A stretch of DNA of 64,000 nucleotides from Bacilli bacterium. Its GTDB lineage: Bacteria; Bacillota_I; Bacilli_A; RFN20; CAG-826. Each line of letters opens with the position of its first letter. The first letter of the stretch is position 1. The stretch covers positions 89,531 to 153,530 of the forward strand of contig JAZLFJ010000053.1 in NCBI GenBank assembly GCA_045615665.1, given 5' to 3'. Below, in pieces: positions 32,493-58,374 of this stretch. Under the pieces are notes generated by a model. The model did no database searches. It was not told where the DNA came from and saw only the letters and a program-made list of their open reading frames with translations. Position numbers and translations under genes: made by a program.

Positions 32493-32893
32493 TATTTTAA
32501 AGCGTCTTCGGAGAAGGCGAATGGTAATAGTTCTTCAACATCAGTTGCTTGAACATCACCTTTGAGATTTGACATATAAATAGGAGCCTTCTTTGGGAAA
32601 AGCTCGGACAAAACTTGTCTACATGCTCCGCATGGCGAACATGGTTCATCTGTATCAGCAGATAGAGCCATCGCCACAAAATCTTCTTTTTTCTTGCCGT
32701 GAAGATAGGCATTATATAGCGCGTTTCTCTCGGCGCACATGCAAAGTGGATAACTGGAGTTTTCGATATTAGCACCGACGAAAACTGTTCCATCTTTACA
32801 AAGCAAGGCTGCACCAACAGCGAAGTGGGAGTATGGTGAATAAGATAACTTACGAGCTTCCACTGCTTTAGCAATTAATTCTTTTGATTCCAT
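32492..32893 (-). CDS. cdd: Cytidine deaminase
   Basis: CAERNA and PCGACRQ zinc motifs. Confidence 0.9.
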   Translation of the reverse strand: MESKELIAKAVEARKLSYSPYSHFAVGAALLCKDGTVFVGANIENSSYPLCMCAERNALYNAYLHGKKKEDFVAMALSADTDEPCSPCGACRQVLSELFPKKAPIYMSNLKGDVQATDVEELLPFAFSEDALK

Positions 32894-33342
32894 TATTTTA
32901 GTCCTCCTAGAATTTCATCTTGTAGTTTGAACATGACGACTTCTTGTTCTTTACTCATATGATCGTATCCGAGCAAATGAAGCATGCCGTGAACGAATAA
33001 GAACGACATTTCTCTTAAAAGAGAATGGCCATATTCTTTAGCCTGAGCCTCTGCTCTTTCATATGAAATAATAATTTCACCAAGACAGATGGGAGAGCCA
33101 TCTTTTTGAGGAACCTCATTCTTATCATCAAGAAAAGCAAAGCTTATCACATCGGTTGGCCTATCAACTTTACGATATTCGCGGTTAACTTCGTGAATCT
33201 CTTCGTCATTAACAATAGTAACGTCAGTGAAATAGTTACCAGCGAGGCCTAAATGTGAAAATACTTTTTCGTATAAATCACGATATGTTGCTTCATAAGC
33301 ATCATAAGATGCTGGTCCTCGATTGATAAAGTCTAATTCCAT
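32893..33342 (-). CDS. ybeY: rRNA maturation endoribonuclease YbeY
   Basis: HGMLHLLGYDH metal-binding motif. Confidence 0.9.
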   Translation of the reverse strand: MELDFINRGPASYDAYEATYRDLYEKVFSHLGLAGNYFTDVTIVNDEEIHEVNREYRKVDRPTDVISFAFLDDKNEVPQKDGSPICLGEIIISYERAEAQAKEYGHSLLREMSFLFVHGMLHLLGYDHMSKEQEVVMFKLQDEILGGLK

Positions 33343-33382
33343 AATCTTGGGTGTATATTATAACATCTTTTTTTAAAAATGC

Positions 33383-34555
33383 TTATAAATCACATCTGTC
33401 CAAAAATCTGGATCTTTTTATTTTTCTTTCTCGGAAGTTAGAGAAATAGCGAATTAAATGTCCGAACGCCTCACTCATTAAGAAATATATTCCAAAATGG
33501 AATATGATGAAATTTGTCGAAGTCATATTGTTAACGATCATCATTCCTAAAGAGAGACATAAACTAACAAAAATATAAAAAACTTTCTTTAAAGAACCAG
33601 TTAACGCTACCTTCCCTGCTAGTGAATTTGCTTTCTTCAAAGAAGCGGTCAAAGTCGATGGAGAATCAAAGGCGGTCTTTTCAATGTCATCAACTTCTTT
33701 AGTCTCTTGCTTTTCTTTCTTTGAAAGTAGCTTGGCATCTAGCACTTTAACTAATAACAAAATCAGAAATACCAATAGATTGCGGTAATCATTCACGCAT
33801 AATAGTGTAGCGAAAACGATAATCATCACCAAATTTGAGATTAAAGTCTTAAAACTGATGAAGTAATTGCATTTGTAATCTACGTAGGAGCGATACGCCT
33901 CGATATTTTGATTACTTTTTTGGGAGAAGAAAATGTCAATATATTGTCTATCAAAGAAATACAATTCTTTGACAATGTACCAATTTTCTACTAATTCTGC
34001 TAAAGCAAACAAAAGCAGGAACCCCATCGTCAAGATGATGCTGGAGTCATCTTTTATCAAGTAAAATCCTGTCAATAAGGATGCGAATACAATGCTTAAG
34101 ATTCCATAATAGATTAAATCCATCCAGATTGGTAAGAGTTTGATTTTATTTGCTTTACATCCTTTAGCGTCCTTTGTATTAACGCATTCGAGAACTTGAC
34201 CGCTCCACCGTTTCATAAATTCATCATGTGAGACCCTTACTTTACCGATGTTAGGATCGATGTAGGTCACGCTGAATTTACTTACTCGTTTTAAATAAAC
34301 GAGATGATTTGGTTTGATCATCACAAGTGTCCCTAAAGGAATCTCCTTAAAATCGTCGATTGGCATCTCATAGGCCGAGAGCACGAAGCCATAATTCTTT
34401 GCGATGTACATCAAATCGTAAAATGTGTAATCCTTCTTCTTTGAAGGCTTTTTGAGATAGAGATATTTTTTATTATGTGTTTTGTTCGCTAAAAGCATCT
34501 TGAGAGAAGCAAAGCCACAATCTCTATCATTTCCTTGGTAACAAACGTATGTCAT
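33383..34555 (-). CDS. C39 (double-glycine) peptidase domain fused to a polytopic membrane domain, with no ABC ATPase
   Basis: QGNDRDCGFASL (Gln7, Cys13), KPNHLVYL (His84) and YIDPNIG (Asp100), then 5-6 hydrophobic helices. GGAGG RBS. Confidence 0.7.
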   Translation of the reverse strand: MTYVCYQGNDRDCGFASLKMLLANKTHNKKYLYLKKPSKKKDYTFYDLMYIAKNYGFVLSAYEMPIDDFKEIPLGTLVMIKPNHLVYLKRVSKFSVTYIDPNIGKVRVSHDEFMKRWSGQVLECVNTKDAKGCKANKIKLLPIWMDLIYYGILSIVFASLLTGFYLIKDDSSIILTMGFLLLFALAELVENWYIVKELYFFDRQYIDIFFSQKSNQNIEAYRSYVDYKCNYFISFKTLISNLVMIIVFATLLCVNDYRNLLVFLILLLVKVLDAKLLSKKEKQETKEVDDIEKTAFDSPSTLTASLKKANSLAGKVALTGSLKKVFYIFVSLCLSLGMMIVNNMTSTNFIIFHFGIYFLMSEAFGHLIRYFSNFRERKIKRSRFLDRCDL

Positions 34556-34568
34556 AGTTTTTCCTCCA

Positions 34569-34608
34569 TAAACTTATTACTGAGAAAAAACGAAAAAAAT
34601 GCGAAAAA
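34569..34608 (-). promoter_or_regulatory. Bipartite motif copy 1 (upstream of the C39-membrane gene)
   Basis: Minus strand reads TTTTTCGCA-N15-CTCAGTAATAAGTTTA. Lies between the rpsU terminator and a GGAGG RBS. Confidence 0.5.
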
Positions 34609-34635
34609 CTTTTTTAATACATAGTATTACTTTTT

Positions 34636-34667
34636 TATAAGAAAAGGCCACCAGCATTTGGTGACCT
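34636..34667 (-). terminator. rpsU terminator
   Basis: AGGUCACCA..UGGUGGCCU stem plus a U-rich tail. Confidence 0.7.
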
Positions 34668-34673
34668 TATTTC

Positions 34674-34847
34674 TTAATAGGATTTACGACGAGCCATCTC
34701 GCTTTTCATTTTGCGTTTGAGGCCTTTTTTCAAATAGAATTCTCTTTTACGTGCTTCAAGGAGGACGCCTGATTTATTAACAGAGCGTTTAAAGCGACGA
34801 AGAGCTTCGTCTAATTGTTCATTTTCACGAACGACAACTTTTGGCAT
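34674..34847 (-). CDS. rpsU: 30S ribosomal protein S21
   Basis: Not in the ORF track (57 aa). Hand translation gives [66 protein letters not shown]. Confidence 0.9.
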
Positions 34848-37170: not shown

Positions 37171-37888
37171 TCTTGTCCTCTAGATGATTAGCAATGACGC
37201 TGAGAGCGTAAATTGAGGCTGTTTCAGCCCTTAAAATGCGATTACCTAAACCAACTGGTGAGAAGCCATGATGCTTTGCATAAATAACTTCGCCTTCAGT
37301 GAAGCCACCTTCTGGTCCAATAATAATTGCGATTTTCTTACCTGGTTTCACATTTTTTAACTTTTTATTGAAAGCTGAAACGTCGCCTTTATTTTCTTCA
37401 TAAGCAATAAATTTTAAATCAGCATCGATTTCATCGATACGGTCAAAACTGATGATGTTTTTAATGTAAGGAATTCTATTTCTTTTAGATTGTTGAGCAG
37501 CTTCTTTAAGAATCTTTTGATAGCGACCTAATTTGAGATCATTTTGGTGATCTTTCATCTTGATGATGGTACGGTCTGTAGTGAGCAAAACGACCTCACT
37601 AACACCGAGCTCGGTTGCCTTTTGTAAAACAAGATCCATCTTATCACCTTTTAAAAGCGCAGCTAAAAGAATGATATAGTTAGGAAGTTCACTGTTATCT
37701 TCAAGCGTCTTTTTCGCGATGATTTCAAGAGGTTTAGTTGAAACTATTTCTGATAAATAAACCTTTTCATCGGCAACAACTTCAATTTGCTCGCCTTTTC
37801 TAGCGCGCATAACTTTGAGGAGATGATATTTATCATCCTCATCAAGAACGATCATGTTTTTAAATATACGTCCAAAGTAGCGTTGCAT
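37163..37888 (-). CDS. rsmE: 16S rRNA (uracil1498-N3)-methyltransferase RsmE
   Basis: 241 aa with the GPEGGF motif. Confidence 0.85.
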   Translation of the reverse strand: MQRYFGRIFKNMIVLDEDDKYHLLKVMRARKGEQIEVVADEKVYLSEIVSTKPLEIIAKKTLEDNSELPNYIILLAALLKGDKMDLVLQKATELGVSEVVLLTTDRTIIKMKDHQNDLKLGRYQKILKEAAQQSKRNRIPYIKNIISFDRIDEIDADLKFIAYEENKGDVSAFNKKLKNVKPGKKIAIIIGPEGGFTEGEVIYAKHHGFSPVGLGNRILRAETASIYALSVIANHLEDKNA

Positions 37889-38322
37889 TATTTTAAAAAT
37901 TCTCCTCTTGAGTCTTGAATGTCGTGTCTAAGTAGGAAGGATAAACCGACCCCTATCATCAAAGCTTCCATTACAAAAAACGGGATCAAATAACCAAAGA
38001 CATTATGAAGCACCGCAAAGAATAGAATTGAACCTATTCCCGCGATGGTAATAGTAGATATACCAAAGATAATCAAACCAATTTTGTATTTGCCAAGGTA
38101 GTAATTATGCGCTCCAAAAATACCGAAAACAAAAGCGAGAATAGCAGTGATAATCTTTGATTTTGGTTTAGGCAGTTCAATGCCGTCTAGCGATTCAAGA
38201 GCCTTGGTCATATCTTGCGTGGTCATATCTTCACCTTCAAGAGGTTTACGACCACCACAAAATGGACAATTCTCCTTGTCTAATCTTGATATTTCTGATC
38301 CACAATATTTACATTTCGCCAT
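37888..38322 (-). CDS. Zinc-ribbon plus TM2-domain membrane protein
   Basis: CKYCGS..CPFCGG N-terminus. TM2-like FGIFGAHNYYLGK helices. Confidence 0.65.
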   Translation of the reverse strand: MAKCKYCGSEISRLDKENCPFCGGRKPLEGEDMTTQDMTKALESLDGIELPKPKSKIITAILAFVFGIFGAHNYYLGKYKIGLIIFGISTITIAGIGSILFFAVLHNVFGYLIPFFVMEALMIGVGLSFLLRHDIQDSRGEFLK

Positions 38323-55765: not shown

Positions 55766-57775
55766 TTATGCAAACATCGACACATAAGAAATTGTTCCCT
55801 CTAAATCTGTGCGACGTATTTTAACATTGTATTTTGTTAATGTTTCAATAACTTCTTTATTTGGGTGACCATATTTGTTTTTCGCGCCACAAGAGATGAC
55901 TGCTTCGCTAGGCGAAGTAGCTTTAATAAATTCTTCACATGAAGAAGTTTTTGAACCATGATGCCCTACTTTTAAAATGTCACAATCAACATCGATTCCA
56001 CTGTTAAGAATATACTTTTCACTTTCAATTGAAGCGTCGCCTGTAAAAAGCCACTTTTTCTTCATGAAATCAACTAAGAAGACGAGGCTAGAATCGTTTT
56101 CATCGCCATCATAATAATTGATATTTTCAAGTTTTATATCTCCTACTTTAATAGGAAAATCACTTCGTTCTTTTAGGTAGCTTTTAACTTTAAAGTTCTC
56201 TATAAGAGAACTAGCTGCTCCAGCATGGTCAAAATCATCATGACTTGTCACTAATAAATCGATGTGAGAAACTCCTATTTTTCTAAAGTAAGGAATTAGA
56301 GTTTCTTCTGCCATATCGAATTTGGTGTTTCCGCCAGTATCAATTAGGACATATTTGTTCCGATTACAAAGAAGGATGGAATCGCCCTGGCCAACATTGA
56401 TGAAATGAACTGAATTATTTGGGAGTCTGATTGGTAAGATGGATATAGTTAGAAAGCTGACCAAGGCGATCGCTACGTTTCTTAAATGTCTGATCCTTTG
56501 AGATTCTAAGAGATAGAGGGCCAAAATTAAAGAAGCGTAGTAAACGAGAAAGAACCACTCATTTACCTTTATAGGTAAAGAGATATCGAGTTTTAATAGA
56601 GATTTTGATATCCCTACTAGGAAGTTCGAGTAGGAATTTATAAGGCTCGTAAGAGGTAATCTAACAATTGATGGAAGGATGAGAATTATATATATCGTAA
56701 TAAAAGGAATAAGCATCAACTGTAACGGAAATGAAAATAAATGAAATAGGTTCTTATTTGCGAACATTATGGGGAGAAGGAACAAATAAGCAAAGATGGA
56801 CAAGTAATATTTTCTTTTCCTGGATGGGAAGTAATTGATTCCAGTTCGATAAAACACTCCTAGTAGGGATAATAAAAATCCTATATAAAATGTCTCTTGA
56901 TATACCAGGTGGTAGTCGATGATGAGAAAGAACAGAGAGAGACCACTTAACAAAGTTAAGTACGAGAATCTCTTTTTTAAGAAATGTTCATTTATATATC
57001 GGAGCGAAGTTAGTAGGAACACCCTTAGAATCGAGATTCTCGGGAAAGAAAATAAAGCTATCGGAGAAAATAGTAAGATCGGGACGAGTTCTGCAACTTT
57101 TTTAGATGAGAAGAGACCAAAGACATACGTTGTCCCTTTGAATAATGAATGTAGATAAATCCCGCTGATCGATACTAGATAAATTAGATTGAGTTCAGCA
57201 AAAGCTGCTATAGCAGGATTTGAGTAATCTTTTTCATTGAACAATAAGGCATCTATAAGCCCTTGAGAATTCTCATTAAATTTAGCCAGGAAAATCTTTT
57301 TGCGACTATGAAGTCTAATCGGATTAGTAAAATCAGTTTGATAATCCTTTATTTCTAGGCTTCTTGTAACACCTTTATCTTTAAGATAATTCGCGAAATT
57401 AAACTGGGATTCATAAGTGGTTACTTTGAATTCGCTAGGTTTGCTTTTTATGGTGAGAAAATCACCGATTTCCTTATCTGAGTTCTCGTCGTAAACGTAA
57501 TATTTTTCAAAGTGGCTTTGGAAGATGAAGTAATTTTCTTTAACTTCCACCACCATTCCTTGATAAATATTGTCTTGATTATCGTATTTGATATTTAAGT
57601 TTCCGATGAAGGCGCCGCCGATAAAGACTATTAGAAATACTATCGCGCGCTTCTTAGAAAATCTTACGAATATAAATACAATATAAACAAGACTAATGAT
57701 GATGCTTAAAGCAAGATTATTTCTAAAGAAATATAATCCGAGTACGAGTGATATCGTTGTACATAATAGACTCAT
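55766..57775 (-). CDS. comEC: DNA internalization channel ComEC (competence plus MBL domains)
   Basis: Polytopic competence domain and a C-terminal MBL (HFINVGQGDS..SHDDFDHAG). Confidence 0.85.
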   Translation of the reverse strand: MSLLCTTISLVLGLYFFRNNLALSIIISLVYIVFIFVRFSKKRAIVFLIVFIGGAFIGNLNIKYDNQDNIYQGMVVEVKENYFIFQSHFEKYYVYDENSDKEIGDFLTIKSKPSEFKVTTYESQFNFANYLKDKGVTRSLEIKDYQTDFTNPIRLHSRKKIFLAKFNENSQGLIDALLFNEKDYSNPAIAAFAELNLIYLVSISGIYLHSLFKGTTYVFGLFSSKKVAELVPILLFSPIALFSFPRISILRVFLLTSLRYINEHFLKKRFSYLTLLSGLSLFFLIIDYHLVYQETFYIGFLLSLLGVFYRTGINYFPSRKRKYYLSIFAYLFLLPIMFANKNLFHLFSFPLQLMLIPFITIYIILILPSIVRLPLTSLINSYSNFLVGISKSLLKLDISLPIKVNEWFFLVYYASLILALYLLESQRIRHLRNVAIALVSFLTISILPIRLPNNSVHFINVGQGDSILLCNRNKYVLIDTGGNTKFDMAEETLIPYFRKIGVSHIDLLVTSHDDFDHAGAASSLIENFKVKSYLKERSDFPIKVGDIKLENINYYDGDENDSSLVFLVDFMKKKWLFTGDASIESEKYILNSGIDVDCDILKVGHHGSKTSSCEEFIKATSPSEAVISCGAKNKYGHPNKEVIETLTKYNVKIRRTDLEGTISYVSMFA

Positions 57776-58314
57776 CTCAAGCGAATATAATTCTTTATCT
57801 TTTCGAATGTAGCGTTGCCTATTCCGTTGACATTCTTAACATCTTCAATTCGACCAAACTTATTTTTCGAAGTTCGATAGCTAACAATCGCTTTAGCGAC
57901 GGTTGAGCCAATACCAGAGATGGTTTGAAGAGTTTCTTCGTCATCACCGTTTATATTGACTTTAGTAATCGGATCCATGCTACAAACATCAGAATTGTTG
58001 TATTTTGGAGCGATATAAAAGCTCATCGAATCTTCTAATAAATAAGTCGTGTCATACGCAGCCTCATCAGCGTTTGTTGTAACGCCACTAGCTAAAGAGA
58101 TCAAATCTCCTAATGTTGTATTAGGTTCTAAAATGTAAGTTCCTGAGCGAGTCACCTCTCCAGAAATTGACACGCTGATGGAATTTCCACTCGCTGAAAC
58201 TAATGTCGAAGCGTTGTTCGCAACAATTGGGCTAGTCGTGTTCGGGTCAATGAATTGGAAGATGACAATCATAATGACCGCTGTAACTAAGACGGCTGCA
58301 AAAACTTTGACCAT
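57772..58314 (-). CDS. comEA: DNA receptor ComEA
   Basis: N-terminal TM helix, SLBB-like region and a C-terminal double helix-hairpin-helix (ISGIGSTVAKAIV..VNGIGNATFEKI). Confidence 0.8.
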   Translation of the reverse strand: MVKVFAAVLVTAVIMIVIFQFIDPNTTSPIVANNASTLVSASGNSISVSISGEVTRSGTYILEPNTTLGDLISLASGVTTNADEAAYDTTYLLEDSMSFYIAPKYNNSDVCSMDPITKVNINGDDEETLQTISGIGSTVAKAIVSYRTSKNKFGRIEDVKNVNGIGNATFEKIKNYIRLR

Positions 58315-58334: not shown

Positions 58335-58374
58335 TAAACTTATTACTGAGGTTTTTATGAAAATTTGCGAAAAA
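58335..58374 (-). promoter_or_regulatory. Bipartite motif copy 2 (upstream of comEA-comEC)
   Basis: Identical TTTTTCGCA-N15-CTCAGTAATAAGTTTA between the valS terminator and an AGGAG RBS. Confidence 0.5.

Follow-up and report, generated by a model that had tools for sequence, protein, structure and literature searches.

Peptidase-containing ATP-binding cassette (ABC) transporters (PCATs) are the textbook case of ATP-driven cut-and-export of bacteriocins and quorum-sensing peptides. PCAT1 of Clostridium (Acetivibrio) thermocellum (4RY2, 6V9Z, 7T54, 8VP5), ComA, LagD, CvaB, and LahT carry an N-terminal C39 peptidase domain with the residues Gln, Cys, His, and Asp, together with a six-helix type IV membrane domain and a nucleotide-binding domain. 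The first two of these elements, and not the third, are encoded by a gene on the minus strand (positions 33383-34555) of a 64,000-nucleotide stretch of DNA from a Bacilli bacterium (contig JAZLFJ010000053.1), referred to here as the window. The gene, hereafter the C39 gene, was delimited from the list of open reading frames (ORFs), the sequence, and its homologues, and encodes a protein of 390 residues, an ATPase-less relative of PCATs. We estimate a probability of about 0.6 that it is a functional, selected PCAT derivative that has lost the nucleotide-binding domain and the coupling helices. It is best read as a competence-co-regulated, ATP-independent double-glycine protease derived from a PCAT.

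Exporter-like membrane domains that work without an ATPase have been described in SbmA/BacA (SLiPT) and in ATPase-less LmrA. SbmA-type transporters possess an ABC-exporter-like fold, lack coupling helices, and are powered by the proton gradient (PMC8442886, PMC13316013), and LmrA stripped of its ATPase domain can be proton-driven (PMC8442886). The missing coupling helices of SbmA/BacA are taken to exclude the binding of an orphan ATPase (PMC8442886). C39 peptidases, which cleave after a Gly-Gly, Gly-Ala, or Gly-Ser leader motif, also occur as stand-alone enzymes: FapD (Fap amyloid), FilB (pilus), and the isolated domain LahT150 share with the present protein the lack of an ATPase on their own polypeptide; they are soluble or singly anchored and are encoded in the operon of their substrate. 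In the late-competence regulons of ComX (SigX; cin-box) and SigH in streptococci and other Firmicutes, a dedicated box is common to DNA-uptake genes and to double-glycine-peptide processing. A competence-linked leader protease has precedent, since the CibAB peptides of pneumococci are competence-induced double-glycine peptides. ComAB, the exporter of streptococci, is in turn a complete ABC transporter and belongs to the early and not to the late genes.

The cytoplasmic C39 (double-glycine leader) peptidase domain of the present protein comprises residues 1-126 (34178-34555, minus strand), as delimited by Pfam PF03412 and by structure matches. PF03412 (Peptidase_C39) aligns to residues 3-127 over profile positions 3-131 of 133 (E 6.7e-19), with a score of 68.5 bits that exceeds the family cut-off of 22. 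No other domain, neither ABC_membrane nor ABC_tran, was found by Pfam in the full 390-residue protein. In NCBIfam, residues 6-161 give partial, sub-threshold matches to the N-termini of full-length peptidase ABC exporters, and a sequence search of the PDB finds the peptidase domains of ComA, PCAT1, and LahT as weak matches. Foldseek aligns the modelled domain with LahT (6mpz), ComA (5xe8), and 3k8u, with target-normalised template-modelling (TM) scores of 0.72-0.74 and root-mean-square deviations of 3.0-3.8 Å, and the papain-like fold of the solved ComA, LahT, and PCAT1 peptidase domains is present in the model. The catalytic residues, which are the oxyanion Gln7 (codon 34535-34537), Cys13 (TGT, 34517-34519), His84 (34304-34306), and the orienting Asp100 (34256-34258), all read on the minus strand, are invariant in all 37 aligned sequences (the window protein and 36 genome orthologues) and are also conserved across a 50-sequence alignment. 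This observation is in line with the original prediction for this DNA, a reading of the sequence made without database searches, which had assigned a complete C39 signature to exactly these four residues; the Pfam match and the invariance in 37 of 37 sequences agree with it. The check by profile hidden Markov models that it had proposed matched Peptidase_C39 and did not match ABC_membrane.

The membrane domain, comprising residues 143-387 (33395-34129, minus strand), is composed of six long helices and adopts a type IV ABC-exporter fold according to AlphaFold2 and Foldseek. The AlphaFold2 model, built from the 50-sequence alignment, has a mean predicted local distance difference test score (pLDDT) of 87.8 and a predicted TM score (pTM) of 0.76. 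Its helices following the protease domain span residues 143-168, 173-209, 218-255, 259-295, 299-341, and 347-387, which agrees with the five to six hydrophobic helices initially proposed. Among the Foldseek matches in the PDB, the top 13 are all PCAT1 chains, aligned across both the protease and the membrane domain (E 4e-13 to 1e-9, query-normalised TM about 0.6), so that PCAT1, the suggested reference, is indeed the best match over both domains. Below PCAT1 follow HlyB, then the peptidase domains of LahT and ComA, then the membrane domains of BmrA, TAP, McjD, TM287/288, and MsbA. The alignments to PCAT1 require about 80 gap columns, and the protease and membrane domains together are about 80 residues shorter than those of PCATs.

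Unlike the membrane domain of PCATs, that of the present protein is not recognised by Pfam ABC_membrane, which has no match in any of 35 isolated membrane domains of the family. A membrane-domain profile likewise finds no match among PDB sequences. The kinship of the membrane domain to ABC exporters rests on the fold and on a collinear alignment to NCBIfam NF045998 described below; the domain thus resembles a type IV exporter in its modelled fold and not in its sequence profile. Residues conserved in the membrane domain include Glu187 (codon 33995-33997), Phe201-Asp202, Lys228, Asn255, Glu292, Asn348, His353, and Phe384. The invariant Phe201-Asp202 pair presumably occupies the position of the exporter 'FFD' motif ahead of coupling helix 1. 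Within the bilayer, the polar residues Glu187 (Glu in 30 and Gln in 7 of the 37 sequences), Asn255, Asn348, and His353 are kept, which argues for a domain that is more than an anchor, without proving any coupling.

No ATPase is encoded at this locus, as the original prediction had stated. ABC_tran is absent from the protein by both Pfam and NCBIfam, and no ABC-type Walker A or LSGGQ signature occurs in the six frames of the whole 64-kb window. The protein stops at residue 390, where the ATPase of an exporter would start, and the downstream gene ybeY begins 40 nt past the stop codon. In addition, the predicted structure appears to lack the site at which an ATPase would dock. The first modelled intracellular loop (ICL1) consists of eight residues (210-217) and the second (ICL2) is a three-residue turn (296-298), and therefore the model leaves no room for coupling helices. 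Moreover, in contrast to PCATs, neither a double-glycine substrate gene nor an accessory gene is located next to the C39 gene. Three features of PCATs set the present protein apart: it has no nucleotide-binding domain, and coupling helices and a linked substrate gene appear to be missing.

The present protein might work without ATP as SbmA/BacA and ATPase-less LmrA do, and it resembles SbmA/BacA in its predicted lack of coupling helices, in its conserved acidic membrane residues, and in a putative peptide cargo (PMC8442886, PMC13316013). SbmA differs from the present protein in being an importer, in having an additional TM0 and a glutamate ladder, and in lacking a protease domain. Neither SbmA nor BacA occurs among the top 50 Foldseek matches, and no SbmA/BacA family of Pfam or NCBIfam is matched. 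The present protein is an analogue and not a member of SLiPT: an ABC-like membrane domain without ATPase or, in the model, coupling helices is shared, whereas homology is not. Proton coupling in the present protein would be pure conjecture by analogy with SbmA.

The closest family in sequence is the Mbov_0121 family of mycoplasma PCATs (NF045998), which is matched by 49 of 50 members of the present family (best E 7e-21). In one member, the orthologue of locus L018, the protease and membrane part is collinear with profile positions 2-455 of 673, and the alignment reaches just up to the ATPase; the final ~218 profile positions, which make up the ATPase, have no counterpart. All scores to this model are 30-74 bits, far below its cut-off of 500 bits. 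Weak NCBIfam matches among the 50 members are formed with FapD (37/50) and FilB (6/50). The matches to FilB (NF050078, 'putative pilus system C39 family peptidase FilB') are a hint that filament systems, too, can be served by C39 proteases. Unlike FapD, FilB, and LahT150, the present protein contains a complete exporter domain of six helices, and no substrate gene is linked to its own gene. Neither Pfam nor NCBIfam was found to have a dedicated model for an ATPase-less C39 membrane protein, and no description of an ATPase-less PCAT or of this family was found in the searchable literature, so the earlier statement that this is not a described system still stands.

The architecture is shared by a large family. 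In a large protein collection, 64 homologues with 98% down to 30% identity were found, almost all of 389-404 residues. Scanning one genome per species yielded 37 related loci, 36 of which contain a complete ORF, and all 36 orthologous ORFs are open and encode 379-413 residues. When the membrane-domain profile was compared with 1.84 billion representative proteins, 449 clusters at 50% identity were obtained (350 at E <= 1e-10). Of the top 150 clusters, almost all have a length of ~380-415 residues with the membrane domain at about residues 130-395; none of them reaches the full PCAT length (~700 residues), and a few shorter ones are probably fragments. Both the protease and the membrane domain are under purifying selection, with ratios of nonsynonymous to synonymous substitution rates (dN/dS) in close pairs of 0.04-0.17 overall that are similar in the two parts. 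Moreover, the ORF is covered by contigs of four independent metagenome runs, from bovine and sheep gut, which differ in it by substitutions only and without any indel; this rules out a hidden frameshift joining the ORF to a nucleotide-binding domain, an outcome that the original prediction had named as one to check.

In the window, the C39 gene is located between rpsU, encoding ribosomal protein S21 (34674-34847, minus strand; ORF translation and tblastn), and ybeY (32893-33342, minus strand; tblastn synteny). The C39 gene is present in all 37 related loci. It lies upstream of ybeY-cdd-era(-recO-glyQS) in each of the 36 loci that reach past the gene, and directly so in 35, the only break of this link being a 1.4-kb insert between the C39 gene and ybeY in L028. 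The gene rpsU is located upstream in 32 of the 37 loci, with the order rsmE-mtaB-rpmF-deoC-rpsU, and in L018 and L019 mnmA is found upstream. The tblastn searches with the window genes thus reveal the same housekeeping neighbours around the C39 gene in related loci. The pairwise identity of the C39 protein tracks that of Era and GlyQS (Spearman 0.66 over 496 non-independent pairs), with means of 32% for the C39 protein versus 71% for Era and GlyQS. On account of this synteny and of the correlation in distance, the C39 gene is an old, vertically inherited resident of its slot, though a fast-evolving one; fast evolution is as expected for a protein co-evolving with a variable peptide partner. 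The C39 gene had originally been described as inserted into, and interrupting, the rpsU-ybeY backbone. The comparison of this interval in relatives supports a conserved, ever-present gene and contradicts an insertion, as the slot is shared by all relatives and the divergence tracks that of Era and GlyQS.

Within a clade of uncultured Bacilli from rumen and gut, the C39 gene belongs to the core genes. The related genomes are metagenome-assembled genomes labelled as uncultured Erysipelotrichaceae, Bacilli, or 'Bacillales', of which a few labels are obviously wrong, and they originate from rumen, horse, sheep, and other gut or environmental samples. The organism of the window itself occurs in bovine and sheep gut metagenomes.

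Sequence signals delimit the C39 gene as a transcription unit of its own, in the order rpsU terminator, promoter-like box, ribosome-binding site (RBS), gene, and then a separate ybeY promoter. The intrinsic rpsU terminator (34644-34668, minus strand) consists of a 10-bp stem followed by a T-run, and a hairpin with a T-run is found at the same place in most related loci, in agreement with the terminator-insulated upstream region proposed earlier. Downstream of it, a bipartite promoter-like box, TTTCGCA-N17-CTCAGTAATAAGTTTA, detected by regular-expression scan, is located directly 5' of the RBS (34569-34608, minus strand; exact copy 34606-34573). The RBS is of the AGGAGG type, with GGAGG at 34563-34567, 7 nt 5' of the ATG. 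In the spacer between the terminator and the box, a single 1-nt indel was observed at 34630: relative to the window, three of four metagenome assemblies and three RNA-run contigs have an extra T in an A/T run, a strain-level length variation.

On the other side of the gene, the 40-nt spacer after the C39 stop codon contains an extended -10 promoter, TGTTATAAT (33357-33365, minus strand), assigned from the sequence to ybeY-cdd-era-recO. The ybeY leader is very short (...CCCAAGATT-ATG; window 33343-33382, minus strand) and has no Shine-Dalgarno sequence. The same layout, TGnTATAAT...CCCAAGA..ATG, recurs in most of the 34 related spacers shown (L001-L036), and in this lineage the operon ybeY-cdd-era-recO thus appears to be nearly leaderless. 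Because this operon has its own promoter, the box would serve mainly the C39 gene. Contigs of rumen metatranscriptomes cover the C39 gene at a depth of 4-8, ybeY/cdd at 29-40, and deoC at 180. This is a weak measure, taken from assembled contigs without strand or transcript ends; the step at ybeY is in line with a promoter at this site, and the low depth over the C39 gene fits a gene that is mostly off.

A second copy of the box, TTTCGCA-N17-CTCAGTAATAAG(TTTA), has the same spacing and lies upstream of comEA-comEC (58339-58372, minus strand; regular-expression scan). The DNA-uptake genes comEA (57772-58314) and comEC (55766-57775), located together at 55766-58314 on the minus strand, were assigned by Pfam: comEA contains SLBB and HHH_3, comEC contains DUF4131 and Lactamase_B, and orthologues carry PF03772 (Competence). 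In the comEC of the window (55766-57775), PF03772 was not detected, probably a threshold effect. Exactly two copies of the box occur in the window, both at the same distance to the RBS, and the upstream motif that the original prediction had reported as shared with comEA is therefore recovered as two exact copies, one of them before genes that Pfam confirms as comEA and comEC. A relaxed scan of the window returns only these two, the weaker matches all being inside genes. No second copy was found within each of the 37 loci, and four exact matches in JGI metagenome contigs are all chance occurrences in unrelated DNA.

Comparable boxes precede the C39 orthologues in related loci. Co-variation was compared in five genomes, including the same-contig pairs L008/L038, L014/L039, and L017/L041 and the same-species pair L002/L043. 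The boxes vary from genome to genome, but within each genome the two halves of the C39 box and their spacing are similar to those of the comEA box; ATTAACATTTT...CTCTAATTAGTAT, for example, is common to L017 and L041. The mean local alignment score of the boxes is 17.8 within a genome versus 11.0 across genomes. The arrangement is similar to the ComX (SigX) cin-box/SigH regulons, with the difference that the sequence of the box is another one. No sigma-factor domain was found by Pfam in ten mid-sized ORFs of the window. In eight loci (L021-L024, L027-L029, L037), the C39 gene has no recognisable Shine-Dalgarno sequence and a conserved CTTATATATC is located ~17 nt 5' of the ATG. These features point to another variant of the box in this sub-clade, or to a leaderless start.

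If the protein is a competence-co-regulated, ATP-independent protease, a dedicated factor, which may be an alternative sigma factor akin to ComX or SigH, would activate the C39 gene along with the DNA-uptake genes. The protease would cut the leader after a Gly-Gly-type motif from at least one precursor encoded elsewhere in the genome, and the protein would need no ATP for its work at the membrane. The membrane domain presumably forms a homodimer like that of PCAT1. It may let the cleaved product pass across or into the membrane, facilitated or proton-driven as in SbmA; alternatively, it may only anchor and position the protease. The role suggested at first, that of a maturation protease working on its own or of a component of signal processing, is plausible. 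A more specific proposal, which we regard as doubtful, is a naturally ATP-independent PCAT whose homodimer cuts a competence-linked double-glycine precursor and then, through alternating access that is facilitated or proton-driven, sets the product free across or into the membrane, with Glu187/His353 as the coupling site. Candidate precursors in this proposal would be a pheromone, a fratricide peptide, or a small pilin-like membrane protein.

Several points weigh against the protease reading and its link to competence. No ORF with a double-glycine leader was found in the window or in the 37 related loci, using an LSxxELxxIxGG-type regular expression on all ORFs of 20-150 residues, which extends the earlier report that no such gene fits in the flanks. 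The evidence for missing coupling helices is a predicted model and not a solved structure. The search for an ATPase covers the 64-kb window, and an orphan ATPase or a substrate gene elsewhere in the genome is possible. Co-regulation of the C39 gene with DNA uptake is probable, the common box being the single ground for it, and one cross-genome comparison of boxes scored 24, above the same-genome diagonal, probably due to T-rich sequences. No terminator is located 3' of the C39 gene, so read-through is possible and the box may also raise the expression of ybeY-cdd-era-recO. To our knowledge, natural transformation has never been shown in these uncultured organisms.

An alternative account assigns no transport to the membrane domain, which would only tether, dimerise, and position the C39 protease at the membrane. 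The protease would there process a membrane or cytoplasmic precursor, and any exit of this precursor from the cell would take another route, such as Sec. We consider this possible though on balance rather unlikely. The protein has neither motor nor, in the model, coupling helices; its membrane domain has diverged to the point that ABC_membrane matches none of the 35 members and the profile has no match in the PDB; and in the 37-sequence alignment the mean identity to the window protein is 29% in the membrane domain versus 43% in the protease. However, an anchor does not need six full-length helices of 37-43 residues, which are kept in about 450 clusters. Moreover, the dN/dS of the membrane domain (0.04-0.25) is not expected of a mere anchor, and the conservation of Glu187, Asn255, Asn348, and His353 within the bilayer also speaks against it. 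If the domain transports, it could still do so as part of a split ABC transporter, in which PCAT function is retained and the ATPase is supplied by a separately encoded nucleotide-binding protein. The fold, that of an ABC exporter membrane domain, and the confinement of the ATPase search to the 64-kb window would allow for this. It is nevertheless improbable, because the modelled loops, with three residues in ICL2 and eight in ICL1, are too short for coupling helices and no ABC ATPase motif was found in the window. The neighbours in related loci are housekeeping genes, and by the precedent of SbmA the lack of coupling helices is taken to exclude an orphan ATPase (PMC8442886).

The fixed slot of the gene between rpsU and ybeY-era would find an explanation if the protease processed a protein of ribosome or RNA maturation. 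Its position upstream of ybeY in 36 of 36 loci, directly in 35, and the missing terminator between the two genes are in line with such a housekeeping role, which is nonetheless very improbable. The C39 gene has a terminator-insulated box promoter, while ybeY has a conserved promoter of its own, and the box is common to comEA-comEC and not to ribosomal genes. The N-termini of S21, L32, and YbeY are ordinary and have no Gly-Gly leader. Processing of the neighbouring ribosomal proteins was considered and rejected. The C39 protein also evolves far faster than the neighbours (32% versus 71% mean pairwise identity), and its RNA contig depth is 5-30 times below theirs. The only point in favour of a truncated pseudogene or an assembly artefact of a normal PCAT is the missing ATPase domain itself. 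This explanation is refuted, with next to no probability left to it, by the intact state and constant length of 36 orthologues, by the occurrence of this membrane domain in 449 clusters, by purifying selection on both domains, by the absence of any ORF indel in four assemblies, and by the start of ybeY 40 nt past the stop codon.

The family thus keeps a protease and a translocation domain under purifying selection without a motor or, as modelled, docking helices. This raises for the ABC transporter field the question of what an exporter membrane domain is capable of without ATP, which has so far been answered only for the importer SbmA and for engineered LmrA. If the proposal of a naturally ATP-independent PCAT were true, the present protein would be an exporter-side counterpart of SbmA and would belong to a natural-transformation programme, not described so far, of uncultured gut Bacilli with small genomes. 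The C39 gene is in the core genome of an uncultured lineage that is abundant in rumen and gut, and it carries the comEA-comEC box; it may therefore be a handle on an undescribed competence-type regulon and, possibly, on horizontal gene transfer in livestock and human gut microbiomes.

A few lineage-specific genes border the C39 gene in individual loci. The insert in L028 (7254-8534) contains two small genes, encoding a putative lipoprotein of 175 residues and a membrane protein of 189 residues. In L016 (3475-5746), a 2.6-kb module on the opposite strand is located between rpsU and the C39 gene and was recognised by eye as a partner-switching set of the RsbU/W/V type, composed of a membrane PP2C-type phosphatase (519 residues), an anti-sigma-kinase-like protein (143 residues), and a STAS/anti-anti-sigma-like protein (103 residues). 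The L016 module, the membrane protein and lipoprotein genes of L028, and mnmA of L018 were rejected as partners or substrates of the C39 protein, being lineage-specific and unrelated. The matches returned by the leader scan were also rejected; they are internal pieces of an ABC-F-like protein and of a TM2-domain protein, and one spurious ORF. In the window, a TM2-domain (PF05154) protein of 144 residues is encoded at 37888-38322, between rsmE and a deaminase gene. It contains an N-terminal zinc-ribbon-like CxxC...CxxC motif and has an orthologue in at least one relative (L028).

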